DNA of 62,474 nt, the filler included, from Kipferlia bialata (Eukaryota): assembly GCA_003568945.1 (NCBI GenBank). It is 4 parts of 4 records of this genome, joined end to end, with 100 filler letters (N's around TTAATTAATTAA, not from the genome) between each part and the next. Parts side by side here need not be neighbours in the genome. Positions count along the whole stretch, not along the records: positions 31,317 to 46,849 come from BDIP01000690.1; 3 more parts are not named here. One strand, 5' to 3'. How positions within the stretch are numbered: position 1 is the stretch's first letter; the number at the start of each line of letters is the position of its first letter. The position numbers and the translations under genes are program-made. Below the pieces are notes generated by a model, which worked only from the letters and a program-made list of their open reading frames with translations, was not told where the DNA came from and made no database searches. Shown here piece after piece: positions 13,999 through 58,051 of this stretch.

Positions 13999-14309
13999 GT
14001 GGAAGAAGGCGGCCCGTCATACATCATCCTAAGGGGAGGGGAGTGGAGAGAGGGGGGATGGGGGTATAAAAGCCCCTATTACCCCTAAAGAGATTGTCTA
14101 GGTATGCCTCACCTTGTTGTATGCCGCCCTGCCCTTCTGCACAGATAGTCCATACATATACTAGATAAACACTAGAGATATATACTAGAGAGAGTGCCTA
14201 GTAGTATCCTACCTTGTTATATGCCGCCCTGCCCTTCTGCATGGCCAGGTCCATATATATATAATAAGGTCGTAAGTATATAGATATATTACTAGAGGGT
14301 ATACTATAC

Positions 14310-15665: not shown

Positions 15666-15677
15666 ACTCACTCCCAG

Positions 15678-17222: not shown

Positions 17223-17405
17223 CAATACCTATCTGTAACCCCTCTCTAATTCTATACTTAAACCTCTCTAACCCCATCAGTCCCCATCCAGGGCATCCTC
17301 CTGTCCCCCCATCACCCCCCCCCATCACCCCTCTCTCTCAGTATAGTCACAGATATCCGCTCTCATTTACCCTTTGACCCCAGCCGTCCAGGGCATCATC
17401 GACAT

Positions 17406-17462
<57 letters not shown>

Positions 17463-18855
17463 GACCTCTTATATATACTTTTGACCTCTTTGACCCCAGC
17501 CGTCCAGGGCATCATCGACCTCTCCCCCGAGGTCATGTTCTTCTCTCTCTTCTGGACCCTGCTGGTCAGGTCGGCCTTTCTGTCCAGGATGGACTTCTCC
17601 CCAGAGGCCGTGAATAAGGTATTGGATTGAAAGTCGTTGTATATAGGTAGTATATATATATATGTGTATATGATATATAGTATATATATATAGTATATTG
17701 ATATTACGATAATCTCAAATCTCTACTCCTACCAGGTCAAGAGGGATGCCCGCCTTGGTGTGGCCGTTGAGACTGTTGGTGCCCTACTCTTTGTTGCTGC
17801 TGCCTCCACCGCACACTACATAGACCCAGAGAGGTTCCCATTCACATACGCAACTGTATTCGACTTCGAAGGTGGGTCAAACAGTGCATATATCCCTCTC
17901 ACTTCCCCTCTTCCCTCGTTACCTCTCTTACATCAGGCATATTCAACATGGTGTCCCTGCTCTGCGTCATTGCAGTCTCGGCAAAGGTATATGTGCTCTA
18001 TACCGTCGATATATACCATCAGTACCGTGTGTAAGTAGTACTGGACAGATATCCTCAATCGTTATGTTTCTCCCTCACCCCCCCCCCTTCCCCTCCCTTA
18101 CCCCTCAGGTCCTCTCCAATACCTCCCCGGCAAAGCTCAGAATACACCCCAGAATGACTAGTCAGATCATATCGGCCCAGTTCTTTAGGTACAACTGTCT
18201 CTCTCTCTCTCTCTCTCTCTCTCCCTTACCCTGTAGGTCCCTTGTCATGGTTCTCTTCAGTCTCTCTCTCTCTCTCTCTCTCTCTCCCCCTCACTCCCTA
18301 GGTCCCTTGTCATGGTTCTCTTCAGTCTCTCTCTCTCTCTCTCCCTCACTCCCTAGATCCCTTGTCATGGTTCTCTTCATTGTCTTCTGCCTCAAGGCCT
18401 GTGTGGTGCTGCTACTCAACGTCCTTCTATACCCAGACCATGTCTCGACAGACGTGTACAGGTGGGTGGGGTGGTTTGCATACTCTTATGCTATGTTAAC
18501 TCAATAGTCTGTTCCACCCTATATATCTGCCGTCTGGGGTCAGTGGTTTACATGTCAAGAGTAACGTGTGTAGTGTCCTAGTCAACTCTCTAACACCCAG
18601 ATACAGCACCCTGGTCTACTTCCTTGTCCTAGAGATAGTCCCATGCTGCTGGGCCATATACAGACTGCTCACGGCTGACAGGTGGGGTCATTCTCATTAT
18701 ACACTTGATGAATGAACGTATGATAGTAATAACAGTGTCTGTGTAGTCAGTGGTGACATAGTATTTGTCTCTTTCTATCCCCCTCACCCAGGTTCTTCAA
18801 GCGTAAGCTGAGGGAGTTCAACTCTGACAGAAGGGGCCTCACTGCATTCGCATAG
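16683..18855 (+). CDS. Multi-exon 7TM-type membrane protein, THH1/TOM1/TOM3 or GPR137-like
   Basis: About nine GT-AG exons join in frame to give roughly seven hydrophobic segments, including FVLRTILF, LSPEVMFFSLFWTLLV and a last helix YFLVLEIVP. Family assignment is from remembered motif similarity. Confidence 0.6.
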
Positions 18856-20194: not shown

Positions 20195-20230
<36 letters not shown>

Positions 20231-20695
20231 GAGAGAGAATGAAGACACGCACCTTCTCGGCTCCGATGATCTGGATGGTGGATCCGGCGTACTTGGCAAG
20301 GGTGAGGAGGGAGCCGGCGTGGCCGATGAGACGGGCGGTCACGACCTAGGGGTGAGTATATATGTATATATATAGTATATACATATGTACATACATACAC
20401 ACACCTCTCCGATGATGGCTGCCAGGTTGGGTGACACAGCCCTGACCCTGTTGAGGAGGTACTCGTGGAGGTCAGCGTGTGCAGAGCCAAGGGCCAGCAC
20501 CTGCTCGGCAACCTCACCGATACTGGGGGGTCAGACGGGTGTAATAGATAGAGACATAGATAGATAGATACCAGGGTCAGAGGGGTGTAATAGATATATA
20601 TAGAAGTATATTGTGTGTGTGTGTGAAGGTACATACCGGGCCATATCCTCCTCAGTGATAGCGGCACCGATGGAGGCGTTTCCAGACTCGCAGAC
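19160..20695 (-). CDS. NOP58: Nucleolar box C/D snoRNP protein Nop58 (Nop56/58 family), 3' half; 5' part lies in the gap
   Basis: [62 protein letters not shown] (Nop domain) and a KKE-repeat tail ending at TAA 19160-19162. The GQ and LL residues favour Nop58 over Nop56. Confidence 0.88.
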
Positions 20696-24600: not shown

Positions 24601-26171
24601 GGACGTTGGCCCCCGCTGTGCCCAGGCCTCAGCGGTACCCGAGGCCGACGAGGTGCTGGTCCTCGTGGACAGACGCTCCGCCCTGCACAACGCACAGGAG
24701 GCCGCCGACAGGGATGACGCTGACCCTGGCGATGGTAGCATGGTTGTCTTCCACTCCCAGATGATGGTCGACAGTGCCAGGTACCCCAAGGTCCAGCTGG
24801 TCTCCTACATCTCGAGCGAGGACCTCTCTGACATATCACCCGGTATGCGCAAGGAGATTGAGAGGAGCAAGCGCAAGTTCTCTTGTGTTGTGCGGAAGGT
24901 TCCTCTCTCCAAGAAGCAGTGGGATGTGATTCGCAGCCACATGAGTGTGTTCATGTCCCAGCTGAGACGGATGCACCCCAACGCTGGTATCAGCGTCGAT
25001 ACCTCCGACCACCCTAGACGCACTCTAGTGGTGTCAGCCCCAGAGAGTTCCATCGACCACATCATGGATAAGGTAATTCCATTGTGCATTGCATGCATCC
25101 TTACTGTGTGTGTAAGACATCATATCATGTCACTAATGTCAGGTGGAACGCAAGCTAGAGACTGCGGAGACTGAGGATGTGCTGGTAGAGCTGCCTGAGG
25201 GCATGCTGTGCAAGCACATCTCCTCCAAGATGAAGAAGCTCAAGGCAGATCTGGAGGCCCTACTCCAGGAGTCTGACTGCTTGGGTCCCTTCAACGTCTG
25301 CCTGGACTTCAACGCCAACGCCATCAAGATCACTGCCGGAGGAGACGCCAAGTGCCAGCTGGCTCTGCTGATTGGCCGTGTCCACAGCTTCCTTGCCACG
25401 CACTCCAACAGCCACGTCACTCTATCCATGACGGCCGAGGGCAGTGAGGGCCGGGCTATCGTGACAAACCCTCGGTACCGCCAGCTTGCAACCTCAGCCA
25501 CCCCCCAGATAGTGCGAGGGGGCCGCAACAACATGATGCTGTTACTCTCGCACCACCTGATCTGGCAGTGCAAGTGCACAGTGTATGGCGGCATGGTGAG
25601 GGACTGGGTGATCAGGAACGAGGCCGCCAACGACATTGACTGTCTCCTCCCCAACATGAGCATGATGGTCTCAGTCAAGGGCACTATTGAGAGATTTGCA
25701 TCAAGGCTGGGCCTGCACAAGGTGGAGGAGAGGCAGCAGCCAAACAGCTACATGATCAGGTTCGGCGGCACCAGCGGCAAGGATATCCGGGTGGAGCTGG
25801 TCGACCCCCTGCTCCCCACTGCCGCCCCCCACTGCGACTGCTCTGCTGGCAATGTCTGTGTCAACGCCAAGGGCGTCATGGCCAAGAAAGCCCATGCCGG
25901 TGGGAACACAGTCACCCTCGCCGAGTGCATCACGCACATCAAGAAGAAGCAGTTTGTGTGCTTCCTCGACTGGAACGCCCCTCAGAACGCAGGGTCTCTG
26001 CTGGGTAGGGTCAAGGACAAGTACCTCGACCGTGGCTGGTCCCTGTTGAACCAGCTGCCCACTGCTCAGATGCGGCAGCTGCAGAGCCAGGCTGAGTACT
26101 CAAACTGGCATAGAAGGGGGCAGCTGCAGTTTGATCCCAAGTACACAGGCCTCGACTGGTCCAAGATCTAG
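21688..26171 (+). CDS. Fusion protein (>1400 aa, 5' end in gap): PARP-like ADP-ribosyltransferase + DEAH/RHA RNA helicase + possible KH-like region + C-terminal Pol-beta-fold nucleotidyltransferase
   Basis: Exons 21688-23244, 23333-24311, 24400-25072 and 25143-26171 splice in frame. ART motifs: YHGT, LGDGVY, A.GY, IFVY..EQLLCEAIVDF. Helicase motifs: PTGTGKSTQLPQY, QPKRV, LDEAHER, SAT, LVFLPG, AETGITIP, QRKGRAGR, DHVTLLNIF. NTase motifs: VYGGMVRDW..NDIDC..VELVD..CDCSAGN. Confidence 0.9.
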
Positions 26172-31216: not shown

Positions 31217-31316
31217 NNNNNNNNNNNNNNNNNNNNNNNNNNNNNNNNNNNNNNNNNNNNTTAATTAATTAANNNNNNNNNNNNNNNNNNNNNNNNNNNN
31301 NNNNNNNNNNNNNNNN
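31217..31316. other. Artificial scaffold linker
   Basis: N44-TTAATTAATTAA-N44. Confidence 0.97.
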
Positions 31317-31527: not shown

Positions 31528-33348
31528 CCTTAGGTCATGATTGCCTTCACCCTCACTCTCTCTCTCTCTCTCTCTCGAGTCTTCTTTCCCCTAGGTCATG
31601 ATTACCTACACCCTCACCACGGGTGGAAGCTTCGAGCCCAGTCTGGTCAGCGATGACAGGTGGGTATACATGCATGGTAATGTTTATACATTAATATATG
31701 TACCACATTTCTATATTTACATGTATATTCAACAAACCTTCGAGCCCGACCTGGTCAGTGAGATAGGCACATTACATATGTGTGTGTATATATGTAAATA
31801 TATATATGTATATATGATGATGTTTATACAATCATATACATTTCTCTGTACCTCTATATCCACATTTACAAGTATATTCAACATAACTCAGAGCCAAACC
31901 TGGTGAGTGAAGACAAGTAACGTATAGACGTTTTTGATTTGTGTTCTCACATATATATATATGGCCTGATGAGAGGTATAGAAGAGACACTTCTTTCATT
32001 GTCATTGTTATGTTGTCCTTATGCCAGGTCCACCCTGTTCGACAGCCTCCAGGACGAGTATTACACGCCAGGTATGTCTGGAATATACTCCTATTTCATT
32101 CTCTCTGCTTTTGAGTGATGGTCATTAATTATACTTGTTCATTCTCTACATATGGGATCTGATCATATATCGAGTTTCAAATCTCATGTCTTTCGATAGC
32201 CTTACTCTTAAGTCGTGTTCCCAGAGATTAATACATATCCCGCTTGGACATTCACATTAAGTCACAATACAACTTTTTACCTTTGTTTGAGTGCAATAGT
32301 AGACTTGTCAGTTTGTGTTTGTCTTTCCCTCAAGTAGTGTTCCCAGAGATTGGTGCTACTGCATATCCCACATGGACATATACATTAATGTTTANNNNNN
32401 NNNNNNNNNNNNNNNNNNNNNNNCACATGGACATATACATTAATGTTTACATCAATTATTTGTATATTGCTGAAGCATATCATCTTACCCTCTAGTTGTC
32501 TTCCCAGAGATTGGTGCCACTGCCTATCCTACATGGACAGTACCCAACAGACTGTACCTGGGGTGTGCACCTGTCAATGCCACAGCTAGGTATACTCTAT
32601 TGAGATATATATTGACTAAATTCCTCTTTGGGTATTAGTACTATTATGTACATGTGTATTTGAATATACTCACTCCAGGGTCTTTGCCGTCTCCAGTGCC
32701 TGGGAGGAGGTCGAGGAACACGCAGAAGGTATGTCTATAGACCATATGTCTCTCTCTCTCTCCCTCTACCTCTATTAAGATCCGCTATATCGACATGTAG
32801 AGTGTCTGTACACCCCTATTGTCCAGTTCTAAGTTTCTCTCTCTCTCTACACTCTTAATGTCCAGTTGAAGTCTACAGCGGCACTGGAAGCATCGCTGAG
32901 CTGCTGAGTCTAGAGGTATGTGCATTGTACATATGTTTGTAATACATGCTCAATGGCATTAGAATAGAGTTTCCAGATGCAACTCATATATGTGTCTCAC
33001 CCCAGGTCCCATTCCTGTCAGCCATCCCCAGCAGCATACACATATGCACAGGTACTCGCTCTATCTCGCTCTCTCGCTCTCTCTCTCTATATATACCCCC
33101 TAATTCAAGGCATCACACTGATACTCATCAGAAGTTCTTTTGAAACTCTTACTCTCAGGCACTGACACTGACGCTTCCAATGACAGTGGCATGTACCTCT
33201 ACGATGGAACATCTGCAAATGGTATGAATGCATTTATGTATATATTGACATATAGTGTGTACTCAGTGTATATGTGTGTACAACCTTGATCTACCTCTCT
33301 CTCTCTCTGTACACCCTTATTCCCAGGCGCCCTTGTCTTCTCAGACTA

Positions 33349-33382
<34 letters not shown>

Positions 33383-35685
33383 CCCTTATCTCAGGCGCCC
33401 TTGTCTTCTCAGACTATGACTCTGCGTCTACTGTCAGTGGCACAGACTATGCCCTGTTCAACAACGGGGGTAAGTGCTAAAAATACACTTTTATGACTAA
33501 ATTACCTTGGATATTATCGTTTTTAGGATATATAAAGGTGTATCTACTGTCTGTTGCACAGAATATGCCCTGTTCAACAACGGAGGTAAGTGCTAAAATT
33601 ACACTTGTATATGACTAAAGAACTTAGGTATTATCGTTTTTAGGATATATGTGGGTGTACATACTGTCAGTGGCACAGACTATGCCCAGTTCAACAACGG
33701 AGGTAAATACATGCTATGAATTCACATGTATAACATAGCGCTAGTCAGCAGTCTCTCTCTCTCTATGTCCCTTTCTCCGTGTGTTTTACCCCAGCGTATT
33801 TCTCCACCACCTCCAGCACCAGCCTTGACCTCGACCACCCCAACTGGTCAGTATCGGTCAACAGGCACACAGAGGGTATGAGTAAATGGTATATTTAGTA
33901 TATAGTATATAGATTATGCGTGATATATAGTATAGTATATGATATATAGTAAATGAGAATGGTATATAGAATACCCCAACTGGTCAGTAGCAGTCAACAG
34001 ACACACAGAGGGTATGGGTATATTTTATACTCTAGTAAATATGTGTATAGTATACTGAGACACTAATATGTATACCAACTGGTCAGTATCAGTCAACAGG
34101 CACACAGAGGGTATGTGAGTATAATGGTATACCTTGACACCCTCTCTCTCTCCCCTTACACCCTTAATACCAGCCACTCTGTCCTCCATTGCCGCCTCTG
34201 GTTATAGTGCCGCATATTGGGTCACACCCTCTGAGGCCACAGTCATCGAGGAGGAGTTCTTCAGCTACCAGGTACTTCTCTCTCTCTCTCTGTCTCCTGA
34301 CCCTTCTTTAAGTGAGAGGGCCATTCTTTAGCTACCAGGTATAGATAGTATGTATAAATGGTATATATATAGTATATATAGTATATATTAGTGTATATCC
34401 CTCTGAGGCCACAGTCATCGAGGAGGAGTTCTTTAGCTACCAGGTATATATACACACATATATATATAGATATAGATAGACGGATAGATATACTGATATA
34501 TAGATATATATATATATATCCCTCTGAGGCCACGGTCATCGAGGAGGAGTTCTTTAGCTACCAGGTAAGTATATATATCTCTCTCTCCCTCTACGCCTTT
34601 TTTCAATGGTGGTTCTCTCTCTACCCCCTTAATCCCTAGGTTGCCATGCTAGGAGGTGCTGCCTCTACCACTCTCTCTCTCTCTCTCNNNNNNNNNNNNN
34701 NNNNNNNNNNNNNNNNNNNNNNNNNNNNNNNNNNNNNNNNNNNNNNNNNNNNNNNNNNNNNNNNNNNNNNNNNNNNNNNNNNNNNNNNNNNNNNNNNNNN
34801 NNNNNNNNNNNNNNNNNNNNNNNNNNNNNNNNNNNNNNNNNNNNNNNNNNNNNNNNNNNNNNNNNNNNNNNNNNNNNNNNNNNNNNNNNNNNNNNNNNNN
34901 NNNNNNNNNNNNNNNNNNNNNNNNNNNNNNNNNNNNNNNNNNNNNNNNNNNNNNNNNNNNNNNNNNNNNNNNNNNNNNNNNNNNNNNNNNNNNNNNNNNN
35001 NNNNNNNNNNNNNNNNNNNNNNNNNNNNNNNNNNNNNNNNNNNNNNNNNNNNNNNNNNNNNNNNNNNNNNNNNNNNNNNNNNNNNNNNNNNNNNNNNNNN
35101 NNNNNNNNNNNNNNNNNNNNNNNNNNNNNNNNNNNNNNNNNNNNNNNNNNNNNNNNNNNNNNNNNNNNNNNNNNNNNNNNNNNNNNNNNNNNNNNNNNNN
35201 NNNNNNNNNNNNNNNNNNNNNNNNNNNNNNNNNNNNNNNNNNNNNNNNNNNNNNNNNNNNNNNNNNNNNNNNNNNNNNNNNNNNNNNNNNNNNNNNNNNN
35301 NNNNNNNNNNNNNNNNNNNNNNNNNNNNNNNNNNNNNNNNNNNNNNNNNNNNNNNNNNNNNNNNNNNNNNNNNNNNNNNNNNNNNNNNNNNNNNNNNNNN
35401 NNNNNNNNNNNNNNNNNNNNNNNNNNNNNNNNNNNNNNNNNNNNNNNNNNNNNNNNNNNNNNNNNNNNNNNNNNNNNNNNNNNNNNNNNNNNNNNNNNNN
35501 NNNNNNNNNNNNNNNNNNNNNNNNNNNNNNNNNNNNNNNNNNNNNNNNNNNNNNNNNNNNNNNNNNNNNNNNNNNNNNNNNNNNNNNNNNNNNNNNNNNN
35601 NNNNNNNNNNNNNNNNNNNNNNNNNNNNNTCTCTCTCTCTCTCTCTCTTATCCCCAGACTCCTCTCAGACCTACATGCGTCTCTC

Positions 35686-35718
<33 letters not shown>

Positions 35719-35996
35719 TATCTCCAGACTCCTCTCAGACCTACATGCGTGTGGTTGACACCAAGCCATACAACATGGATGGGTGCTATGATCTGACACC
35801 CACCTCATACACTGTAGGGACAGGTAAGTGGATACTTGTGTAAACTTATACATCTATTAATATATATATATATATGTATTATGTATCTATTTATATATAT
35901 TGCATCATTAGTATATATATATAATATGGATGGGTGCTATGACCTCACTCCAACATCATACACAGTGGGGACAGGTCAGTAGATTAGACTAGTAGG

Positions 35997-36040
<44 letters not shown>

Positions 36041-36751
36041 TGTATTAATAGTATATATATACAACATGGATGGGTGCTATGACTTAACACCCACTTCCTA
36101 CACTGTTGGGACAGGAATGGACATACACATATTCAAGTATATATATGTGCAGTTCCCACACTATTTTCCGTCATGTGTTCAATATATATTATATATTATA
36201 TTATATATATTATTATTTATATATAATATTATTTATATATATTATTATTTATATATATTATATTATATATTATATTATATATTATATTCAATATAGTTGG
36301 TTCATACTCACCCCCCAGACTATGTCATCATCACTGGCTCTGTGGATAGAACACTGCTTTTGTATACAATTTTAGAGTGTTTAGTTGAAGGATCATCTCT
36401 TTCTTAATTTTTGTATAATCTTACCCCAGACTCTGTCATCATCACTGGCTCTGTCGATGGAGACGCCCTGGACCTACGTGAGTGCATCAATCTCTCTCTC
36501 TCTCTCTCTGTCGCTTATGGTCATCATATTCCTTTCTCATTTGTTTCCCTACTCTCTCTCTCTCTCTCCCTCTAAACCCTTATGTCAGCCACCTTCCTCT
36601 TGGCCCGTATCTGTTTGTTTGATGGAGACACCCTCAAGTACTGCAGGTATGCTCGACATCTTCAACCAGATATATTTTTCTCTCTCCCTCTAGCCCCTTA
36701 TTCCAGCTCCTCCATCGAGTATGACCCCAACACCTTCCCCCTGACCATCAT

Positions 36752-36783
<32 letters not shown>

Positions 36784-37709
36784 GCTACACCCTTATTCCA
36801 GCTCCTCCATTGAGTATGACCCCAACACCTTCCCCCTGACCATCATCCTGTTGGTCGCACTCATGGTTGTCACAACAGCAGTCTCAGTGATGGTTGGTAT
36901 CGCAGTCTATAGGTACATACAGTATATAGTAGAAACACATATCATAGGTATATATTCTCTGAATTTGTTATGATTCTATATTTGATGAATTGTGCTCTTT
37001 CTAGACTGACTCTAGATGCTGTGCCAGGCGTAAGCAGTCCAGACTCGTCATGATGAGTGCCCAGCAGCAACACTTAGGTAATGTATGTATATATATATAT
37101 ATGTATCCAATTACTATATATAGTATGTGTGGGTTAACATGGTATTTCTCTTTGGTAGAGTGGTCATGATGAGTGCCCAGCAGCAGCACCTAGGTATCAA
37201 GCCACATATAGTTCAACGGTGCATATAGTAAATAGTATTTATGTTTCTCTCTCTCTCTCTACACACTTATTACAGGCCCCCAGCCAGTACAGGGCTCTCT
37301 CACCCTCAACAGGCGGAATACAGCCAAGCTGGCACAAGGGGTGACAGCTAGAGATAGCGCAGCACTCCAGGTACTGTATATATGTGTGTGCATAAATTCA
37401 TGCAAGGGATAGTGTCCAACAACCAGAGACTCAGCGTCTATGGAATATACATTATTCTGGTATATGCCATGTAGCCTTGCAATTGTATATATGTACATAT
37501 TCTTACTAATGGCTCTGGATATCATAGGTAAATATAGGTATATATGTCCTTTGTCTTATGCCCCAGGCCATACAGAGTGACATGTCCATGCAGTATATAG
37601 TATATATATATAGTATATATATATATTTATTTATACTATATCATCCTTTATTATAACCCCTCTTTGTCCCTGTTCTTATGCCCCAGGCCATGCAGAGCGG
37701 CATGTCCAT

Positions 37710-37745
<36 letters not shown>

Positions 37746-38249
37746 CGTATGCACAGGATTACACATCATATTCTTATTACACTGTCCCTGTTCTTATGCC
37801 CCAGGCCATGCAGAGTGGCATGTCCATGCAGCAGCAGAGGGAACTGGCAAAGAGTCAGGTACTGTACTACTATTGTATATATGAGAATAATACTGTAGTT
37901 ATACATTGTTCCTATATGCTCACCCCAGGCCGGTAACCCCGCTGCCCCCACCCCCCCAGGGGGCACACCCACCATGCCCAGGCCCAGGTACTCTCTCTCT
38001 CTCTCTCTCTCTCTCTGTATATATACATAGGCCCAGGTACTCTCTCTCTCTCTCTCTCCGTAATACTATATATACTTAGTATAGACATTTTCAACATGTA
38101 CCACTTGTATCACATGTATTTGTTTACATGTATGCCCAGGTACTCTCTCTCTCGCTATCTCTCGCTCTCTTCTCATCCTAACTCTATTGTATGTATATAT
38201 ATATATATGTATATATTGTATCTCTCACACCCACCATGCCCAGGCCCAG

Positions 38250-38288
<39 letters not shown>

Positions 38289-38567
38289 ACATCAAGCTAA
38301 GTTGATCCTTGGAGTTGCTATATGGAAGTAATACTATGATGTCAATAGTATAAAGTAGTGATCTACTCTTATCCCCAGGCTGCTCCAGAGGCGTGGCACC
38401 CATTTTTTTGAATTAGATTTAAAATTAAAGAATATAGTAATGTATTCGTATATACCATATGTCTTATCCCCAGGCTTTTGCAGAGGCGTGGCACCTATGC
38501 AGGCACACCCACAGTACCAGTAGCTACACTCGCACCAACTACTTCTACTGCAGAGTCCCCAATTTAG
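31395..38567 (+). CDS. Type I membrane protein encoded by more than 20 micro-exons (partial at 5' end and across gaps)
   Basis: Exons of about 30-130 nt join in frame (for example 31595, 32496, 32679, 33395, 33795, 34173, 35728, 36430, 36801, 37016, 37277, 37805, 37929, 38474). They give an S/T/D-rich ectodomain, TM LTIILLVALMVVTTAVSVMVGIAVY, RCCARRK and a Q/P-rich tail ending at TAG 38565-38567. Confidence 0.7.
33430..33710 (+). repeat. Three tandem ~117-nt units spanning an exon 3' end, donor and intron start
   Basis: ACTGTCAGTGGCACAGACTATGCCCTGTTCAACAACGG(G/A)GGTAA recurs with donors at about 33470, 33586 and 33703, and the intronic part is also similar between units. Confidence 0.9.
35769..36114 (+). 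repeat. Exon 3' end plus two synonymously diverged intronic copies
   Basis: The 18-codon block YNMDGCYDLTPTSYTVGT occurs at 35769, 35920 and 36060, separated by (TA)n-rich DNA. Confidence 0.92.
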
Positions 38568-38889
38568 GGGTGTAGCCAGAGAGAGAGAGAAAGAGAGAGA
38601 GAGGCACCACCAGTTTATGGGTGTGGCCAGAAAGACATATCCCTGAGTGACAGAGGGAGAGAAGGTTTTCCGATATGCAGCTTCTGAAGCAGAGCTGTAT
38701 ATATCATGTATCTTGTGTATATGATACTGATATTGTTGTATGTATGAAGAGTGACAGAGGTTTAATAGACGTTTCAAATATAGTAATTATTGCTGATGTC
38801 TCTATTGATATGGGGATTGATATGGGGAGCCATTGGCCTCTCTCTCTCTCTCTGACCTCTCTATCCTCTCCTCTCTCTCACGCTCTCTG

Positions 38890-41800
38890 ACACTGAGCCC
38901 ATGCTCAAGGTGATCCAGTAGCTGGTGTCAAACAATTCAATTCAACATAAACAGATATACACAGGATAGAGTACACAAAGTGATGTACCTGTTCAAGCGC
39001 AGTAGCTGCAGAATGTTGCCCATTCTCCTCTACATATGGGTAAAAATGTACATTGCTCTCCTATTACACACATATATACTTCTATATTGTATTGCTTTTA
39101 CCTGCACTAAAGCTGGCAGCTGCAGTATGTTGGCCAGTCTCCTCATTGCAATAAGGAGAGGCATCCCATAGGCACACATGTACCAGTCCCTGTCCCTTCT
39201 ATTAGAATAGGAAAGAACATACTATATACCTACAGTTGTATAGTATGACAACGTGTATAAAGCACATGCTATTAGGAGACGCATCCCATAGGCACACATG
39301 TAACAGTCTCTATCCCTGTGGTCAACTGTTATCCATACAGTTTGAGAGTCACAGTACATAACAGTATAGATGTGAGTAGGTAGGGGCATCACATAGTCAC
39401 ACATGTACCAGTCCCTGTCCCTATCATTAGTCTCCTTCAAACTCACCAGCGCACCCTAGACTTATGCACATTTGTTAACATCATCAATATCGCCATAATG
39501 AGTAAGAGTGCTCACCTTGGCCCCTGCTGCTGCATCGATGTGTGACTCAGCCCATGGGCAGCCTCATCAGTGGACATCAGCAGACGCTGCCTCTCGTTCC
39601 ACCTGAATAGTTAGCATTGATACACGGTTACAGTAGACGCTGTCTCTCGTTCCATCTGAATGATTAAGAGAGTAGACACCACACGGTTTAGTGACAAGTC
39701 AGACGAAAGAGGTTAACATCAGCAGACGCTGTCTCTCGTTCCATCTAAACAATCAGGAGAGTAGACACCACACTACTAAGTTACAAGTCAATTGAAAGAT
39801 AGTTGTTCCATCTGGAAACTAAGGAGAGTAGGCACCACACAATTCACCGACAAGTCAATCGAAAGAGGATACCTGTGACAGGGCCTCTGGAAACGGTACC
39901 CGATACATCCAAGAGCCAGTGTGCCACGGAGTAGAAGAGACTGTACCGTGCCTGCGGGGGAGAGAGAATAAGGTCTATACATATTGATGAAGAGAGAGAG
40001 AGGGAGGACAATATACACTAATAGAGAGATAGAGAGTCAAGGTATGTCTCGACATACCTATCACACAGTTGGTCATACTAAGACAGCTTGGGAGCACCTC
40101 TTCCACCTGTTATCAGACCATTAACAACCTCAACACTCTGTGACAAGGTATGTGACAAGCACGTACCTCAGGCCTGCTGCAGTAGAGCACCGTCTCCCTC
40201 TGGTCATCTGGGAAGGCTTCTAGCCACACAGAGAAGGTCTGGGTTAAGATAGTCAGAGAGTATTCCAGACAGATAGTAATGAAAAATATCAACGGTAATG
40301 CATAAGAAGATAGTATCCTCAACCTGCATCTCCCTGACCAAGGGTAGGGTTGCTGATATGGCTGTGGCACAGACAAGACTCTGGAACAGTTCTGGGCTGT
40401 CAGGACTCTATGTAGCTAACAGACAGTGACTCAAACCCAATAAGTATGATTTGTGGACATAGTGTATTGGGTCTATACAACATACCTCCCGACCCAATTG
40501 GGAATGAGTTGAGCAGGCCAGTGGCCTTGGCCAGCACCATGGCCAGGCTGGGGTTAAATATTGCTTATGATATAGAATATTATATATGGCAAGGTTTATT
40601 CTCCATGTATAGTGTAATCCATAATAATTAGGTATTACTTGGCCAGAACCATGGCCAGGCTGGAGTTAGAGTATATATACATTAATACGCTATATATATT
40701 GTTATCTAGTTCTGGCAGAACCATAGCCAGGCTGTAGTTAACAATGCTTATGAAGTGGTATACTCTATATGTATAGTATATTCCAGAATAGGTTCATCTT
40801 GGCCAGCACTACGCTAATGTACCACAGAATATCAGGACTTCGGATTCCGAAGACTGCTGTGAAGGATATATGTATATATAAACACTGCTTACCCTGCTGC
40901 GTGTCTCTGCTTGCACTTGTCCCTGTGCATACATGCTGACATAAGGGTGTAGAGAGAGAGAGAGAGCGAGAGAGAGATATATATAGATAACTTGTCCCTT
41001 TACATGCATAAATACTGGGCGTTAATAGATAAGACTAACTCAAAGTCTTTACGATCCAAGTTGTGTTTGCGGGAGTAGAGAGAAGGAAACACAATCAGAG
41101 AGCGTACACCATACCTCATATATGTATGTCTACTATCTCTTGACATATGTGATTGTGTATATATATGCTATGTATAGGACCATGTATATATATGTGGGTG
41201 TACTATACCTGACACATGCGTCCTGTTGTCCCCAGTCACATCTTCAGAGACACTCCACCTTCAGGGTTAGTCACTAGTACAACCACGAGTTCGTGTGGGA
41301 ACTATGTGCTCACTAATGCATATGTACTTGCACATTGAGCCTCTATACAATGGCATATATATATATATGTATGTATGTATGGTATGCTACTTAATTATAC
41401 CCCACCTCCCCAGGTCCTGCGATATGGCTGCCAGGTAGAGGAAGAGAATCTAGGGTTAGAGAGTTCGATGGGAAAGAGCGTTATCATTATGGACTATCTA
41501 CTGTGACTAGTGGTTGAACATGCAAGTGACAACGTCACCTGTTTCGATGGCATGTACATTCCCCTCCCCACACTTGCCCTGATGCTGTGCACAATGTGAT
41601 GGGTCATGTGCAGGGCAGAGGTGGCAGTCATGTCTGATAATGAGTGATATAGTATACGTGGAGTGTATTGAATACACTCTGTATTTACAGATACTGATGT
41701 TATGTGTATACTGTATAGATTCATATTGTATGTGCACAACGTGATATGTCATGTGCAGGGCAGATGTGGCAGTCCTGTCTGAGGTTGAGGTCTTATTAGA

Positions 41801-43382
41801 AGATACATATATGGATATATTACATGTATGTATATATATATATGCACAATAGAGATCGCAGTCATGTCTTGAGGAGAGATTCAACACTGTACATAGTTAT
41901 ACATATTACAGTACATACGCCGGGTTGTGTGTGTTATGTGCACAGTGTGGGGTAGGCGGAAACTGACCTGGGTTCAAGTTACCGTGCTTCCTGTATGTGT
42001 TGGCAACTGCCATTACATAGGCAAGGAAGTTGCTCAGGGGGACACCTATAGGTCAGTCAGTAGTAACACATACAACACATAGATATTGTGTTTGCTACAA
42101 GCACTACGACTCAAGCTTTGAGTCAAAGGCACCCCTATAAGTGTAAGTCGTCCGACGATACTAACATATACGAGGACACCTGTAATCTCTAGCCCCATTG
42201 TCTGGAAGAGGTGCACACTGGCTGCCTCCAGTCCAAAGCCACCTGGAGATTAGAGACTCTAAAGTAGAGCTATAATGGAATGTCCGAAATAAACTTCATC
42301 CATAGGTGATTACGCAGTGAAAATCTAAATAATCTTACGGTGGTATATAGATATTGGTACTACAGGTACCTGTCACGTGTGGGAGTCTGTTGCAGTCATA
42401 CTTGATGTCACCACTGAAGTTGTTCAGGGCCTTGCTTGTGTTAGCACAACATTATACATTATATCGTAACATAACTGTTGACTCCGGGAAGTAGTATGAA
42501 GTGTCAGTGATTCTGGTTGATGCATACCTACTCCTTCTGTCCGTGATGATGTTCCTGTACGTATATACAAAGTCTCTGATGCAGGATGGAACCAGCTTGG
42601 CAACAGGGTCTACAAACAGAGACAGAGGGAGGTGGGGTGACACGTAGCCCAACGTAGGAATCCTGTGAGGAGGATACGTCTTAGGTGGTTATGTTAAGAG
42701 AATTATAGGTTGAAGATATAACCTTTGCATACCTTGGTAACAGCATGCTGTTCTCTGGAGTGGGTCCTTCCGTCTCCTCTTGGGTTCCAAGTGCATTGAA
42801 TGAGCCAGTCTTGGGGTGAAAACACATTAACACAGGTATTTTGTGCACTAAAGAATATATTGAACATGTAATGGCATTGAATTAGATGAAGAGGCTTTAC
42901 GGGTATATATATGCAGACACTCACGTTGAATGTACTGGCTGGTACCCTGGGTGCACTTGATCCCTTAGGTAGGACAGGCACGACGCTGCTTTGGCGTCTG
43001 TCTCGTAGGGACACCGCATCTAGATGTCTGGATATGAGACAAAGAGAGCCTGACACGTGATGTAAGAATCTATCTCTTTGAAAACAATTATGTCAGCTGC
43101 CTAGGTATGAGCCGAAAGACCCGAGTATGTATATATACTAATTGAAGAAAGTGATGTCGTATACTTCATAAACTAATTGAAGAAACAATGCTATACCTAC
43201 GTGTATGTATAGCTATGATAGTAAGTCACATATATACCTACACATCGTGTATTACCTTAGTGTCTGCTTGGCTGAGTTATCCTGCAGAGCCTCAAAGCTC
43301 TCTGAGGGAGACCGCTGAGACGTCTGAGACGATTGAGACGTCTCTTCGTCCATTAGTCTGAGACTACCCTTGAATCAGTATA

Positions 43383-43430
<48 letters not shown>

Positions 43431-46400
43431 TATGAGAGTAAGTAAAGGGGTATGCATGATACATGCCGGGCATGTAACATGCCCTGACTATGTTACATAA
43501 TGATATCGCTAAATTTTCTATTGAAGTATGTATCAGTGTCAGATTAAGGGTATTTTAAACCTTGTGATTGTGGGTGTGCGCACGACTCCTACGTGTCTGG
43601 TTGGCATACCCCCTCATGCATCTGATTGTTAGCCACAAAACCTAGACACAGACACAATGAAGCAAACTTGATCGTGGACAATATACTAAGCGATTTGACA
43701 ATTACGGTAGCAGTGGCAATAAGAAATTCTTATTATAAGAATGCACCTCAGATGCTCTCTGAAGTAGTACACGCAGGTTGCTCCTCTGATGAAGATTGGA
43801 CACCCGTTCTCATCTCTACTGTCCACATAGTGGGCAAACGTGAAAGGGGCTTGGAACTGGTATGAGTCATGAATCGTTTTAGTATTCTTAATAAGAATGT
43901 CATATATAACCCTGACTCAGGACTCCTGAGTGTGTACATTGGGCTAGTCACACCTGTTTCTTCCTCGCATCTCTGAAACTCACTCCACCTGCGGCATACC
44001 TGGGTCAGTGTCATAACGGGAATACAAAGTGTTGAGTAACTATGATAACACATATATAATGTAAGTAGTGCACTGTGCCTGTATGGTGGCTCTGTGGCCA
44101 GGTGGTTCCACATCACATCGGAGGTGACATTTAACTCGCAGTGCACGGACTGGGAGATTAGATCTAGCAATGTACTGGAATCTATTCTAAGAATAGACTA
44201 TTCTTACTACAAGCGGTAACACCAGTACCTCAATAATGGCCAGACTTATAGAGTAGACAGAGGCGGCGATTGCAATACTTTCATAGTATAACACAATATC
44301 ATACAACTGTTACTGCTATGTATATGCATCAATATTGCCATACCATAGTGTCGAGGTGCTGCAGCCATGCTGCTTCTGGCTGAGACTCCTTGAGCATGAA
44401 CCACCTGTATATTAGAGAGTAGCACAATATATTATAATATGGTGCATGTCAGGTAATCTACTCTATCTATGGACTCTACCAAGAATATGGATCGATTTGG
44501 ACCAGAGTATTGGTAATATACTTGTTAGTCAGGTTATGACAACGTATCTGTCAACAAACACTGATGACTCACGTGTCTGCAGTCACTTACATACTACTAA
44601 TATTGATAGGGATACTGATACCTGAACCACTGCCTTGTCACGTAGATGTACTTCTGGGAGAAGCCTCTAGGCCCCTGGGTGACCAGCACATAGGGGGACT
44701 GTGGGTTAAGGTATGTTCTTTTGTAGTGCTCGAATCAATGTGTTGTGGTATATTCAAATTAATAATTAGAGAATAATTGAAATAATTGAAATAATTGAAA
44801 TAATTGAAATAATTAATCACATTGAATAGAGCAGCACGTACAATAGTAATATACATAAGAGATATATACATATGAACTATGCATGTATATAGTATAACAG
44901 TAACCTCGAAGCATCTCGCCAGTGCCCCTTGAGGAGGTCTAGGTACAGGGGGCCACATCACAGAGGGGGTCCTAAGGGGTAAGATGTACTACAACATATA
45001 CGACTACAACTTGAAGTCAACATGAATCATACGACTATATCTGAAGGGAGTCATAAGTTGTGAGTTGCATTCGACATCATCCATATGAATCATATGACTA
45101 TGTCTGAAGGTTGATATGGTGGCAGTAATTGTGTAGAACAGATAGGTGGTCCCATTACAGAGGACTTCTCTGAGAAGAAATCCTAGTAGGTCAGTAATAC
45201 TCACACGTGAAGATGTCCGAATACACCTCTATGTGGATATACCCTGATATAGAGAGAGCTTTATATATACATATATATATATATATATATCTGAACTATG
45301 TCGTTTGAGTTAACCACACTTACTTAACCGGAGGCGGTGGGAACGGTGCTGGGGGCATGGGCACATGGTTGAGTCTGGGGTTAGATACAGCAGTTACAAA
45401 GGAGAGAGAGGGAGACATAAGCGTGGACTACTGACAAGGCAATCTGGGTGACATATACTATATATACTGTGTGATACAGATGTATTTAGTATATAGTAGT
45501 CCTTATACCTAGTTGACTGGGGCACTATGATCCATCCCTCTTCCTCCACGTCCAAGGGACCTGGGATCTTATACGGGTACTTGCGCAGTATCTGACCGGA
45601 TACCAAGTGGAACTGAAGTGAAAGATGTAGTATGAATATCTAATGAATATCTAATGAATATCTAATGAATATCTAATGAATGTCCAATGATTATCTAATG
45701 AATATCTAACGAATACTAATGAAGCTACTGTCATACTGCTCTACATTATCTAATGAATATCTAACGAATATCTAATGAAGCTACTGTCATACTACTCCAC
45801 ATTTACATACCTGACTCAGTCTAGCTGCATCGTGAAGTTTCGCAAACTCAGTTGCCAGTCTATCGAGTAAGGAGAGCAGTGTACCAACACCATCATGCAC
45901 TGCTAGACCTAGGGTGAGAATACGACCAGTACTAATATTGGAAGTCTGTGGACAGAGTAGCGATGGTTCTTAGATTCTACAACTAGACTATTGGTTCGCA
46001 ATGCTAACTTTGCACTAGTGCGATGAGACAGTGGTGAATAGTTACTGAAAGGAATCTCTTCCTGGAACCAGACTTGAAGGAGGATAATATACCATACCTC
46101 TGCTTAGTTCAGTGCAGTGTGGTGGACTCAGTGTCTGTGCTCGAAGAGGAACGGCGAGCGACGTTGTGTGTATCCATAACCTGACGTAAGACCACCAGTC
46201 CCAGCAATCAGACAAGAAGGGGTGTATATGTGTAAGATATACTTGTATTGCAATGACATAAACAAATATTGTACCTCATTTCCATGCATCTCTTCGGAGA
46301 TATCACCACTCGACTCACTGCTCTGCCTAGTCTTCTCGGCAGCAGGGGGTGGAGGCCTGAGTCATCAATACATTGACTCAATATATATCATAGTGATTGG

Positions 46401-46849: not shown

Positions 46850-46949
46850 NNNNNNNNNNNNNNNNNNNNNNNNNNNNNNNNNNNNNNNNNNNNTTAATTA
46901 ATTAANNNNNNNNNNNNNNNNNNNNNNNNNNNNNNNNNNNNNNNNNNNN
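46850..46949. other. Artificial scaffold linker
   Basis: N44-TTAATTAATTAA-N44. Confidence 0.97.
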
Positions 46950-47035: not shown

Positions 47036-48097
47036 CCACTCTGACAGTATTGAGGCCAGACATAAAGGTATATGCATGTATATATACATGTACGTCCCCT
47101 CTCTCTCTCTCCCTCTCACTCCTAGGTCATCCTGCCCTGGTGTGGAGGCAGGGTTGACTGGTCCATCATCAAGGTATATATGTATACATGTACACTATAT
47201 ACACTCATTCCATATATATATTGTTGAATGATAGTAGTACATATGCAACGGTTGGGCTGTTCCATCATCAAGGTGGGGATGTATATGCATGGATACATAT
47301 ACACAGTATATATACATATATATAAGGATGTGGATGTGGGTGTGTCATCATCCTCATCCAAATTCTCTCTCACCGTATGTATAGCTCATCCATGATGACC
47401 CTTGCTGACCCTTAGGACATCTTGTGCATCATCACCCTGCTCTATAATACATCTCGCAGTATGTCATATTCCATATTCTCTCCTTCTTACCCCCAGGACA
47501 TCCTATCAACCTAATCAACCTCCTAGACAATATACTTTTCCATCATCATCCTGCTCATAGCTTTCTCATTATGTCTATTTAGTCCCCCGCATGTTCGTTG
47601 CTAAGCCTCAGGACATCCTGTCCATTGGTAGAGTCAGTATGCTCATACAATCTGAGATAGTCTATCTCACCGTTACTCATTCATCGATCCATGCCTCTTG
47701 TGAAATGAACCTTTCCAACCCATCAGGACATCCTGTCCATCGGAGTCGGCATGCTCATATACTGTTTCATCTATATATATAATATATTCTGTATATTCAA
47801 TATTAATATATACTTATATATAATGTTAACACATCAGGACATCCTGTCCATCGGAGTGGGCATGCTCATATCCAGACTGCCCCCTACACTTGGCACCATC
47901 ATCAGTACGTCTCTCCTTCTAGACCCTTCTGAAATGTCTCTCCTTCTAGACCCTTACTATATCTCTCTCTGCCTCATCTCCAGGCTGTGCAGAGATCAGA
48001 TACCTACTCCCACACTAGCGCATTTATATGTATCCCTCATCCTCAGGCAATGCTGAGATCCGATACATTGTGGACCATGACTCCTCTGTCACAGACG

Positions 48098-48138
<41 letters not shown>

Positions 48139-49914
48139 CATCTATAGGCAATGCCGAGATCCGATACATTGTGGACCATGACTCCTCTGTTATAGACACA
48201 GAGACACTCGGCAATGCACTCGTGGCCAGTTTCGGCATATTCAGCAGGTTCTCTCATTATCTCTACTCAACTCAATGTTAATCAGGGCTCTCTCTCTTTG
48301 CTGCTGGTGTTGTTTCCGTATCACAAGAGTCAGTCGGTGTCTCTCTCGCTATAGTATGTGGACCATGTATATAGATACACTGTACTAACCACCAGGGTGT
48401 CCACTCTAGTCTACCCTTACATACACTTGCTGCTTCATCTCTCTCTACTGTAACTGTACTAACCACCAGGGTGTCCACGCTAGTCTTCATGCCAACCACA
48501 GGCCTAACACAAGGTGAGGAATCTACTAATGACTATATATTGAATATATATATAGTGCATATGTGTATTGTATATAGTGTATTGTAGTGTGGACCAACCA
48601 CCGGCGTAACACAAGGTAATGTATCACTTCTGTGTACTATGTGGACATAGTGTATTATGTCTCTCTATATTCCCTTGATATATTCTATTCAGTACATATC
48701 CGCTACCCCTTACCTTAGGCCTCATGCCCATTGTTGGCTTCAACCTGGGATGTAGACAGTGGGACAGGATCAGAAGGGCAACATATTATGGTGAGGTCTC
48801 GCTTAATATAGCCATGGTATATATATAATACAACATAGTATTATATATGTATATAGATACGATATTAATGTATCCTTGTGTAGGCAGTGGGACAGGATCG
48901 GAAAGGCAACATACTTAGGTAGGGAGACCCTTACTCCAGCTACACTCCATCCATATTTCGCACTACTATGGAAGAATCCAGTCTCTATTAGTATATATGC
49001 AAGTCTACACTCCATGCTCTTCTCTCACCTTAGTCATGTGGACTGCCCTCCTAGTCTCTACCCTCACTGTCATCATGTATACTATATATAGTACATAGTA
49101 TATAATATGTATATATATATACATCTCATACCAGTCATGTGGACGGCTCTAGTGGTATCTGCCCTCACCGTCATCCTGTGCGAGGTGTTTGCAGAAGGCC
49201 TCATCCATTTCTTCTCCCACGACGCAGTTGTGCTTGATAAGGTACTATATCTCCCCCTCTCTCTATTCTCATTCTGAAGGAGTGTCAAACTGATATTCTC
49301 TCATAACACTATCCCTTGTCACTTCTCCTACGACGCAGATGTGCTTGAGAAGGTATTCTCTCATCTCACTCTCATATGTTTTCTCAGGTTGTAGATCTAT
49401 TCCATGTTGGTTTTCCCCTCTTGTCACTCATACCTATGCCCCCTTTGTCCTCCTGCTCTATCTCCCTCTCATTTCTCATTCTATGTAATTCTCTCACCCC
49501 TCTCCCACCATGTACCCTCTTGTCTCTCATACCCAGGCTCCCTTTGTCCTCCGTATCTCCCTCTGCCTCTCCTGGCTACAGTTCCTCCCGGCCATGGCAG
49601 CAGTGCTCGCACAGGTATTCACTCTAGCGTGCTTATGATATTATATATGTGTATATATGACCGGGTATGTTTCTCTGAATATATATATGCCATGGCCGCA
49701 GTGCTCGCACAGGTATTAATAGCTCTAGTGCATATGTGATAGTGTTTATAACACTCTGTGAATGTGATATTGACCCTAGGTCCACCGGGATGTAGGTGTC
49801 AACATCCGTGTGCAGCTCTTCAAGCCCCTGCTGGAGATTGCTCTCCTGTTTGCACTGCCTAGGTTCATGGGTCTTACAGGTGTAAATATGTATATTCATA
49901 CAGAGAGTGGTATG

Positions 49915-49946
<32 letters not shown>

Positions 49947-50433
49947 GCCCCTGCTGGAGATTGCTCTCCTGTTTGCACTGCCTAGGTTCCTAGGACTCAC
50001 AGGTAAACAGAAATGTTAGTGAATTATTCATAGAATAGTAATCAGGTTTCTTATGTATGATCATCTCATATTGAATACGTTCATAGATTGGCCCTTCACC
50101 CCCAGGTGTCTACCTTACCAAGCCTGTCTCCGAGTTCTGTGCCGCAGTGTACGGTGTAGTGCAGCTCAGACGCTACCTTAAGGTGAGATAGTGCTCTTTC
50201 AGTACATACTATTCAACGCTAGAGCAGAGTGAGGCAGTGATACATTGGATACACACGTATCCATATAGTCTTCCACACTCACTAACCTCCAGAGCTTCGA
50301 CACCAAGCAGAGTCTAGATGAGTCTGAGGGTGGTGCATCAAACAACCAGGGAGAGAGAGAGGAGTCCCACCCAGCTGTGGAGGGGTCCCAGCCAGACTGG
50401 GATCCCACTACAGAGAGCGAGACATCCGGTTAA
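47036..50433 (+). CDS. MATE family (multidrug and toxic compound extrusion) transporter, C-terminal half
   Basis: Spliced exons give IKDILSIGVGMLI, NALVASFGIFSRVSTLVFMPTTGLTQGLMPIVGFNLGCRQWDRIRRA, LIHFFSHDAVVL and LPRFMGLTGVYLTKPVSEF, which are typical MATE segments. Stop at 50431-50433. Confidence 0.85.
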
Positions 50434-50963
50434 CGGTATTATAGTCTTCACTCAGCCTATGGTAGGCTCCCAATAATCTCACTCGCTCACTGACCGTACT
50501 TCAGTGCTCTAGTTGAGAACAAGAGGCGGTGTCTGCTACTTCGGGTGCCTATCTTCACCTCTGTTTATGTAATATTACAAATACCCTATAATCTACCCAT
50601 ATACTTATACCCCTATACAATGTAAGCTGTTACCCTAGGGCCTAGGGTGGTTCTAAACCTGACCTCAATACCTCATATATGTTCTCAAATCAATAACTCG
50701 TCGCAATAGATTACATTTTCGACACGTTGTGTACGATGGATATCCTACGCTCAACCAGTGTTACACTGTCCAGTGTATGGAGTACCACAATTCAGGGCTG
50801 ATAGTATAAGCCCGATACAATTCCTCTTATATACTATTAGTTGTATTATGCGATCTGCAGGCAAAACGATCATATCTATTGCACAACAACATATATATGA
50901 AATTGTATCTGGGGTGAGTCATTCTGAGTATGTTTCTAATTATCACTCTCCTCTCCTCTCCAG

Positions 50964-55519: not shown

Positions 55520-56371
55520 CTCAGTTGAACCGCATGTGAGCTTAGTTCAGAACTGAGTGCTTGACTAGCCCTTGGAGGGGCAGAGTCATTATGCTATGGT
55601 GAGAGAGTCTTAGTAACTGTATTCGTAATTGAGTGCCAATTGCTTCAACTACATCATGTTAACTGTACATGTATATATGTAGTATATAGTATGTATTTAC
55701 ATGCATATTCATACCTATCCTATTATACCTGCCCCAATAGAGCCCTACAATCATGTACTGTACCACACTCAATACTGAGTGATGTACACACTATATACAC
55801 AAATATCATGTCTACATATCCTATCTACCTGCCCCAGTATAGCCCTGCACTCCTGCACTGTACACCTAGTCTGACAGGTGGGGCACAGGTTGTGGTAGTG
55901 GGGGTCTGAGGTAATTCATTCACTGATATTATGGACTATTCCACATACGATAATGTGTTGAAACCAACGTCTATGAATTGTGTGTGTATATATTCATGTG
56001 TGTGTGTGTGTTGAGGGGGGGGGGGGTGAGACGGATCCTTGCTGCCGCATCCACGATTATAAGTTGAAGCAATCATATTGATTCTAATACTTCATACTGT
56101 ACATATCTCCCAACTAGCTCTCTGTGCAGACATGCCCCACGAAACAGAGGGCATTTACATATCCTCTACAAATATATACGGCACACATACATATTTGTGG
56201 CATATTTATCTACATGTATATCTGTATACTTCACCCCCTACATATGTATGTGTATATATACCCTACCTAGCTCTCTGTGCAGACATGGCCCATGGAACAC
56301 ATGACCACATGGAAGGATGAGAAAGGGGTCTATTATGAGGGAGGATCATATATATACCAATGAGAGAGAGC

Positions 56372-56405
<34 letters not shown>

Positions 56406-56951
56406 CATGCCCCATTGAACAGATGGCCACAGGGGGTGATGAGGAAAGGGTCTGAGGTCAGTAATACGTATAGATATATACCATATATAGAAGAGAGAGA
56501 GAGAGAGAGAGAGAAGCGGATCTGGATGTGAGGTATATGCATGGAGAGATACAAACAAAAATATGACCGGTGGGTGGTAATGAATGATATATATAGTATG
56601 AGAGAAGAGAAAGAAAATATGGGGAGAGAAGGGAGAGAGGGAGCGGGATGTCCGAGCACCGATTGATTGTGTGTAGGAATGTGTTTAGATGGGGGGAGGG
56701 GGGGGGTACACGTTACCCTGAGAACCAATGTCACGCAATAACTAGTGATAGCACTTTTGTCGATATACGGAAGTAGGGAGTGACCAGATAGAGAGAGAGA
56801 ATAGTATACATATTGAGATATGGGAGGCGGTTATTGTGCACTATTCTACCAGTATTGGTCACTCACATGAAGAATCTGAGAACCACAGAGTGTTATACAG
56901 CATGGGCCTACCTTGTGAATGTAGTGAGCAGATGCTGCAACTCAAGAGCAT
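55520..56951 (-). CDS. N-terminal RING-H2 finger exons (probably the 5' end of the ARM-repeat gene)
   Basis: ATG at 56951. Exons at about 56951-56912, 56329-56268 and 55905-55829 splice to MLLSCSICSLHSQDPFLILPCGHVFHGPCLHRELDPHYHNLCPTCQTRC, a C3H2C3 ligand pattern. Confidence 0.8.
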
Positions 56952-57914: not shown

Positions 57915-57958
<44 letters not shown>

Positions 57959-58020
57959 TATACATATATTTATATATATATACACCCTGTGGGTGTGTCT
58001 CCTGTCTTTGGGGTCTTGCT

Positions 58021-58051
<31 letters not shown>

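Follow-up and report, generated by a model that had tools for sequence, protein, structure and literature searches.

Introduction

In mutually exclusive arrays of the Dscam type, neighbouring exon-like copies are whole exons with both splice sites, they are translated and their dN lies below dS. Partial or tandem copies reportedly arise by end synthesis and microhomology joining in Pol theta-dependent duplications, and in the Rogers model introns are said to be gained by tandem genomic duplication that includes the splice dinucleotides. Amphioxus mirages, described in Adh3, the globins BflGb6 and BflGb9, troponin C and PGBD5, come closest in anatomy (PMC3087553, PMC3902484). In these two papers, mirages are described as minisatellite-like, 81–100% identical, subject to concerted evolution and present at a handful of loci (PMC3087553, PMC3902484). 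The genome paper of Kipferlia bialata counts 124,912 introns, and the terms 'duplicat', 'heterozyg' and 'ploid' are absent from the part of its text that was available (PMC5874029).

Here we describe intronic copies of exon edges, hereafter echoes, in a window of 62,474 nucleotides of the K. bialata genome. The window consists of four scaffolds of about 15.5 kb each, with edge genes cut, joined by linkers (15566–15665, 31217–31316 and 46850–46949) in which a 12-base stop spacer is flanked by 44 N on either side. It also holds an intronless open frame of 3,590 aa (1736–12508, +) in an otherwise intron-rich genome, with an acidic helical middle, weak Ig-like matches below the cut-off and a hydrophobic stretch near the C-terminus; a DEAD/Helicase_C/HA2 helicase gene (21600–26171, +) with long N- and C-terminal parts outside any Pfam family; and, where a scaffold begins, an F5/8 type C domain (15667–16194, +).

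Results

An exon end recurs twice in the following intron

The focal locus lies in the gene for P0001, a predicted membrane protein of 451 aa with no Pfam family above the cut-off. Its features are as follows.

35658..35680 (+), acceptor-side echo of exon 35728–35823: AG and the first 22–23 nt, identical, with a CT tract at the end
35728..35823 (+), working exon, 12th in the P0001 model; exact mapping of the NCBI-named protein, probable-RNA contig matching 35729–35823
35769..35822 (+), copy 1, the last 18 codons of that exon; protein P0001 maps exactly here
35824..36429 (+), intron containing three echoes, two donor-side and one acceptor-side; in the RNA contig 35823 is followed directly by 36430
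35888..35919 (+), AT-rich tract ahead of echo 2, homologous to 36028–36059 ahead of echo 3
35920..35976 (+), echo 2: last 18 codons (35920–35973) and an intact GT donor; joined to the exon in one contig
36060..36116 (+), echo 3: last 18 codons (36060–36113), with GA replacing the GT donor; in DNA contig 36047–36177
36319..36350 (+), acceptor-side echo of the next exon, AG intact, skipped by the transcript; the loose end of the RNA fits 36430, not 36319
36430..36477 (+), next working exon; gene model and RNA contig

The preliminary description of this DNA had reported that the last 18 codons of the exon occur three times, with 9 and 6 exclusively silent differences between the exon and its two copies. 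This observation is real. The copies begin at 35920 and 36060, and exon end, echo 2 and echo 3 encode the same 18 residues. Exon and echo 2 differ at 9 nt, all third-position and all silent, exon and echo 3 at 6 nt in 5 codons, again all silent, and we find that the two echoes also differ from one another only silently, at 10 nt in 9 codons. At minimum, the three copies require 14 changes, of which 14 are silent. Both echoes begin mid-exon after a TA tract, as described, and the two tracts (35888–35919 and 36028–36059) are identical at 27/32 nt, so that the focal echoes have a common distal breakpoint. The statement that the echoes have no evident acceptor also held, since for neither echo does an upstream acceptor reach the 5th percentile of real acceptors; a bare AG does occur 8 nt before each. 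The reported loss of GT in the third copy corresponds to the GA found there.

Echoes are polar copies of exon edges in six genes

Six genes of the window were modelled. Three models follow, with minor corrections, proteins that NCBI names as K. bialata and that come from two of the four scaffolds; the other three were built by hand from open frames, and Pfam confirmed two of these. Echoes were scored blind to codon position and anchored on splice sites; of 7,434 control tests, 0.013% passed the threshold used. Two score-11 echoes (47416 and 45168) were removed before the count, and 13/53 echoes were trimmed at the start of a microsatellite. The resulting 53 echoes, 23 donor-side and 30 acceptor-side, are 15–61 nt long. 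All but 5, which lie beside terminal modelled exons, are inside modelled introns (48/53, in 27/59 introns), a fraction that overstates the genome rate because the genes were picked partly for carrying echoes. They are distributed among the following regions.

31534..38402 (+), P0001 gene, 19 modelled introns; 23 echoes, 5' flank included (echo scan)
47250..50002 (+), MATE transporter gene P0002, 13 echoes over 9 introns (echo scan)
39267..41867 (-), 3' half of gene P0003, 8 echoes (echo scan)
14113..14252 (-), XPG-N nuclease gene, two donor-side echoes (echo scan, Pfam)
17284..18324 (+), hand-modelled gene for a hydrophobic protein, four acceptor-side echoes (echo scan)
55729..56451 (-), RING-finger exons, three diverged echoes (echo scan)

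Genes differ strongly in echo density, and so do parts of P0003, whose 8 echoes are all in the 3' half. The multi-exon region 50900–55300 (-) has no direct repeat at all, and the Nop-domain gene region 19560–20720 (-) has no junction echo and two short, exonic-looking repeats. Tandem repeats outside exons are found at 45625–45803, 45017–45110 and 57876–58128 (an 11-nt array and duplications of about 63 nt and 112 nt), showing that short tandem duplication happens away from splice sites too. Two of the public models likely contain errors: the terminal stop of P0003 (39515–39198, -) overlaps a GT donor and is followed by a further open exon (39198–39102), and a 16-nt exon of P0001 (34640–34655, +) adjoins an N gap. 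Echoes at 32213–32250 and 47612–47650 resume after in-frame indels of 6 and 3 nt, respectively, and one near 39004–39050 has a 1-nt gap. On the RING exon, the 5' and 3' echoes (56267–56451 and 56114–56146, -) overlap and have an alanine codon in common at a place where the exon encodes proline.

Polarity is strict: copies of exon starts lie upstream of the exon and copies of exon ends downstream. An unanchored search returned 24 exon starts upstream and 16 exon ends downstream, plus 2 more downstream on the diagonals of known echoes, and these 42 exon-intron matches included no inverted or wrong-way copy and no copy of a whole exon. No echo covers more than 73% of its exon. These figures largely refute the reading of echoes as remnants of whole-exon duplicates that were formerly mutually exclusive exons, which would account for a coding history with no need of foreign alleles and which we regard as most improbable. 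In the 5/5 introns with both kinds, donor echoes precede acceptor echoes, so that no AG...GT pseudo-exon is formed. The 5' and 3' echoes were not significantly associated on the same exon (P=0.27), and the idea that a new whole exon had split an old one was abandoned on this ground. The splice signal is usually kept (GT in 20/23 donor-side and AG in 26/30 acceptor-side echoes), and 4/53 echoes are identical to the exon. Introns with echoes have a median length of 317 nt, as against 110 nt for those without, and the distance from used splice site to echo site clusters at 95–125 nt, near the latter median.

The focal arrangement is present in read contigs and its echoes are skipped by a probable transcript

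In DNA run X1, one contig (35729–35989) contains the exon, the start of the intron and echo 2 with no variant letter and no gap, which links exon and echo 2 in tandem. A second contig (36047–36177) contains echo 3 preceded by the AT tract, not by exon; the TA tract between echoes 2 and 3 is spanned by no contig, and their link comes from the assembly only. No further contig of X1 has at least 80% likeness to the focal region, a full second allele or paralogue being thus not evident there, and 0.96 of sampled words from 35700–45600 are present in the run. Depth was 279 for the contig of exon and echo 2 and 171 for that of echo 3, reflecting either AT bias or the presence of echo 3 on only part of the chromosomes.

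The preliminary description had listed, among the findings that would overturn it, that the copies are haplotypes mis-tiled by the assembler. Such an artefact, with two haplotypes tiled in tandem, would suit a short-read assembly with many gaps, an echo 2-echo 3 link that crosses an unspanned tract, and unequal contig depths. An independently built contig nevertheless runs from exon through intron to echo 2 with no other letters, an AT tract rather than exon precedes echo 3, no full second exon copy was found, and X1 holds nearly all sampled words of the region; we consider an artefact exceedingly improbable.

Run X2, which is RNA by guess and not by record, yielded a spliced contig of 1,927 nt comprising the exact exon followed by the first 30 letters of exon 36430. 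It uses the codons of the exon and skips both donor echoes and the acceptor echo of the focal intron. The read-contig comparison covers 548 bases only, the assembly may itself derive from X1, and rare variants are lost from contigs; the comparison thus establishes the arrangement and the main isoform, and minor isoforms may exist.

Dropped rare isoforms would leave room for minor transcripts in which alternative or unusual splicing includes the echoes, with selection on the protein maintaining them, a use also raised in the preliminary description. Copied sites are often as strong as used ones (12/23 donors, 14/30 acceptors), as such use would have it. Yet the single RNA contig passes over all three echoes of the focal intron, and the opposite splice site is no commoner than background, being found for 5/23 donor-side echoes (28% background) and, as a good donor just downstream, for 2/30 acceptor-side echoes (26% background). 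One stop and several radical changes occur among the echoes, and copy 3 is without GT. We therefore judge minor-transcript use very unlikely. The paucity of donors after acceptor-side echoes possibly reflects selection against pseudo-exons. That the first donor and the last acceptor are used, together with short internal exons (median 75 nt), suggests exon definition, as judged from one intron and the anatomy.

Silent sites differ in excess of a dead duplicate

The view that the copies were coding until recently had been set against a neutral expectation of equal change at codon positions 1, 2 and 3. That null is wrong. A dead copy changes everywhere and the exon only silently, so the expectation is about 1:1:2, or a ratio of about 2 between 4-fold and 0-fold sites. 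The corrected null is also rejected. Pooled over the six modelled genes, 62/278 4-fold and 58/1,114 0-fold sites differ between exon and echo, a ratio of 4.3 (2.7–7.0 by bootstrap over 36 exon ends), and without the focal case the ratio is 3.6 (95%, 2.5–5.6); the probability of a ratio of 2 or less is 0.0008 and 0.0018, respectively. The 157 unique changes fall 37/25/95 at codon positions 1/2/3. A stricter first pass with 48 echoes gave 80.5 silent against 50.5 non-silent changes (pN/pS 0.19). Amino-acid changes in echoes are more conservative than matched random ones (P=0.006), and silent swaps lead about equally toward commoner and rarer codons (37 vs 39). Avoidance of stop codons was not significant (1 seen vs 2.9 expected).

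The coding history beyond that of a dead duplicate thus stands. The purely synonymous pattern does not extend over the window: silent changes make up 86.5/157 of the unique changes and about 45% are non-silent, so 'only synonymous' is true of the focal case alone. Tested singly, only P0001 has a significant silent excess (P 0.0007–0.004); P0002, P0003 and the RING gene give P 0.06–0.59, and a context-matched binomial test without the focal case gives P 0.009–0.10. Changes private to one echo of a stack number 24 silent and 27 non-silent, or 18 and 27 without the focal case, where pN/pS is 0.42 and indistinguishable from the exon-only null.

These figures bear on a same-chromosome origin, in which CT or TA slippage duplicates the junction as in mirages, the echo then decays neutrally and only the exon is under selection; fast-mutating introns would wipe out the likeness of flanks. 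Such duplication accounts for the polarity, the microsatellite ends and the near-identical echoes (4/53 identical), for the private changes without the focal case, and for echo 33543–33585, which has three missense changes and a homologous flank. It allows a ratio of about 2, against the 4.3 and 3.6 observed, and it fits poorly with the focal case, where 14/14 silent changes have P=1.3e-6 under exon-only selection and 7e-5 after correction for 53 echoes. The first two silent changes of echo 2 adjoin the TA tract and may belong to it; without them 7 remain (P=0.001).

Flanks diverge at the splice site and stacks share breakpoints

Flanking intron sequence points the same way. Identity at intron positions +3..+6 is 45/92 (49%), against 91% expected of a dead tandem copy and 35% in unrelated introns, and in the XPG-N gene an echo is identical to the exon over 40/40 exonic positions while its intron flank has diverged. 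Faster mutation of low-complexity introns may weaken this argument. The flank is clearly similar in 13/53 echoes, whose 4-fold/0-fold ratio is 2.6, as mirage-type duplication would predict; the rest have ratios of 5.8 (14 echoes) and 4.3 (26 echoes). Gapped indel counts in flanks were not used as evidence, being of similar size in unrelated introns (2.4 vs 1.6–2.0). As a general explanation we consider mirage-type duplication unlikely, though it probably accounts outright for a minority class. The private changes, the ratio of 2.6, the missense echo at 33543 and the single-gene and context-matched tests together indicate that echoes decay after becoming intronic, that ordinary self-duplicates are among them and that the focal case lies at the extreme of a mixture.

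Distal ends adjoin a TA, CT or CA microsatellite in 19/53 echoes (11% background), which slippage predicts equally. Breakpoints are shared within 5 nt by 8/16 stack mates (4.3 expected, P=0.03). Intronic copies had been pictured as a stack of superseded alleles pushed outward by repeated one-sided events. No clear age gradient was found, the nearer copy being more similar to the exon in 8 of 18 pairs, the farther in 5, with 5 ties. Independent repeated events also fit less well than the restacking of one founding junction: the focal echoes are of equal length and have 27/32 upstream nt in common, and with the 8/16 shared breakpoints this makes a single founding junction per stack more likely. 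Exon-echo divergence forms a continuum of 0–30%.

A possible origin from diverged alleles

The reading we lean towards, and hold to be somewhat more probable than not, is that echoes are the exon edges of strongly diverged working alleles, captured and restacked by recombination limited to exons. A break inside an exon would invade a diverged homologue and be copied past the splice site into the intron of the donor; copying would halt at a TA or CT tract, and rejoining by microhomology would leave a partial second copy. The echo would then be a direct repeat of the exon edge, and out-of-register crossover or conversion with another allele's exon could add or overwrite copies while keeping the old breakpoint, a step for which the focal stack is the best fit. 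Intronic copies decay, with GT or AG lost in 7/53 and missense changes gained. The spliceosome takes the first donor and the last acceptor in the focal intron and presumably elsewhere, and this use allows intronic copies to be tolerated. If the donor was another working version and pairing took place only in exons, introns being too diverged, then one would expect a silent excess as well as a boundary at the splice site; distal ends at TA, CT and CA tracts are likewise expected of a microhomology join. The donor alleles are deduced from sequence; the founding event may have used a homologue or the chromosome itself, and the newcomer may be either the exon or the echo.

In a published repair inventory (PMC8516963, Supplementary Data 2), Ku70 and Rad51A are missing from the K. 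bialata entries, Dmc1 is listed four times and PolQ once. Dmc1 is reported to stabilise mismatched triplets and heteroduplex (PMC6719624), and completion of aborted SDSA by alternative end joining is documented (PMC8951532). A bolder version, which we put forward tentatively and would not ourselves bank on, is that exon edges of highly diverged conspecific or sister-lineage alleles, captured through Dmc1-only, exon-confined and mismatch-tolerant recombination, make Kipferlia introns grow and turn over, so that one apparently homozygous genome would archive tens of thousands of former alleles and reveal cryptic sex and record diversity in a free-living relative of Giardia.

The main weakness of the allelic model is the level of silent divergence that it requires, about 22% on average and 5–9 of 18 codons at the focal site. 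To our knowledge, this is at or above the highest within-species values. No diverged allele is present in the contigs of X1 over the focal region. A metagenome scan with P0001 gave 160 pattern matches and no relative; one with P0002 gave 9 loci of 25–32% identity, too distant to be of use, and neither scan revealed a close relative. An mRNA template was rejected, as GT and AG are kept in echoes, which never run into the next exon, and mutual conversion of exon and echo on one chromosome was rejected by reasoning, since the ratio would stay near 2.

The same exon-limited recombination could have drawn on since-lost paralogues or homeologues from an old hybrid or polyploid state. Donors of this kind would explain near-saturated silent divergence and conservative amino-acid changes with no extreme standing diversity, as well as the two in-frame indels of 3 and 6 nt. 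The divergence continuum, which is not a single age class, three mutually distant versions at the focal site and the lack of any remaining donor copy, in X1 over the focal region or in the database (one match each for P0001, P0002 and P0003, cluster size 1), make this quite improbable in our view. Overall, an origin of the echoes from diverged alleles is likely but unproven.

Discussion

If echoes are former alleles, then allelic divergence, outcrossing and residue-level selection could be read from one genome, even in a lineage without population data. Intron growth would be tied to a repair toolkit without Ku and Rad51A, the echoes would offer a natural test of the mismatch tolerance of Dmc1, and a single genome would document a concealed exchange of genes and extreme diversity. 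Whatever their origin, skipped strong decoy donors and acceptors are a natural assay of exon definition by a reduced spliceosome, for which 87/174 proteins and no snRNA candidates were found (PMC6679479). For K. bialata, gene prediction and read mapping can also be led astray by echoes.

Comparison with known systems

Like amphioxus mirages, echoes are tandem copies that span the boundary on the 5' and 3' sides, often keep AG or GT and are ignored by splicing, the skipping of splice signals being seen here in one intron. Mirage units measure 10–160 bp, and the nearest spacing in Kipferlia is mostly 95–125 nt. In contrast to the handful of mirage loci, echoes occupy 27/59 modelled introns and their likeness falls at the splice site; mirages are alike over exon and intron, whereas the Kipferlia flank is clearly similar in 13/53 echoes and identical at 49% of positions +3..+6. 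Silent sites of echoes differ about 4 times as often as zero-fold ones, and the word 'synonymous' is absent from the accessible text of PMC3087553 and PMC3902484. A search of the open-access literature, with subscription papers mostly uncovered, found no report of the pattern in Kipferlia or of allele-like intronic exon edges. The anatomy is thus known from amphioxus mirages, and the coding-history signal was not found in print within that scope.

Aborted SDSA in the Drosophila gap-repair assay resembles the proposed process in one-end invasion and synthesis, a microhomology join and partial or tandem copies (PMC8951532). The template there is a sister or identical sequence, whereas in Kipferlia it would be about 20% diverged at silent sites, with confinement to splice junctions presumed genome-wide. 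With the Rogers model the echoes share intragenic tandem duplication that includes splice dinucleotides. That model produces a new working intron, whereas echoes lengthen existing ones (317 vs 110 nt) and their copied sites are skipped: no new spliced intron from duplicated sites was seen, the RNA contig joining 35823 to 36430. Finally, where Dscam-type arrays are made of whole exons, the echoes of Kipferlia are half-exons with one splice site.
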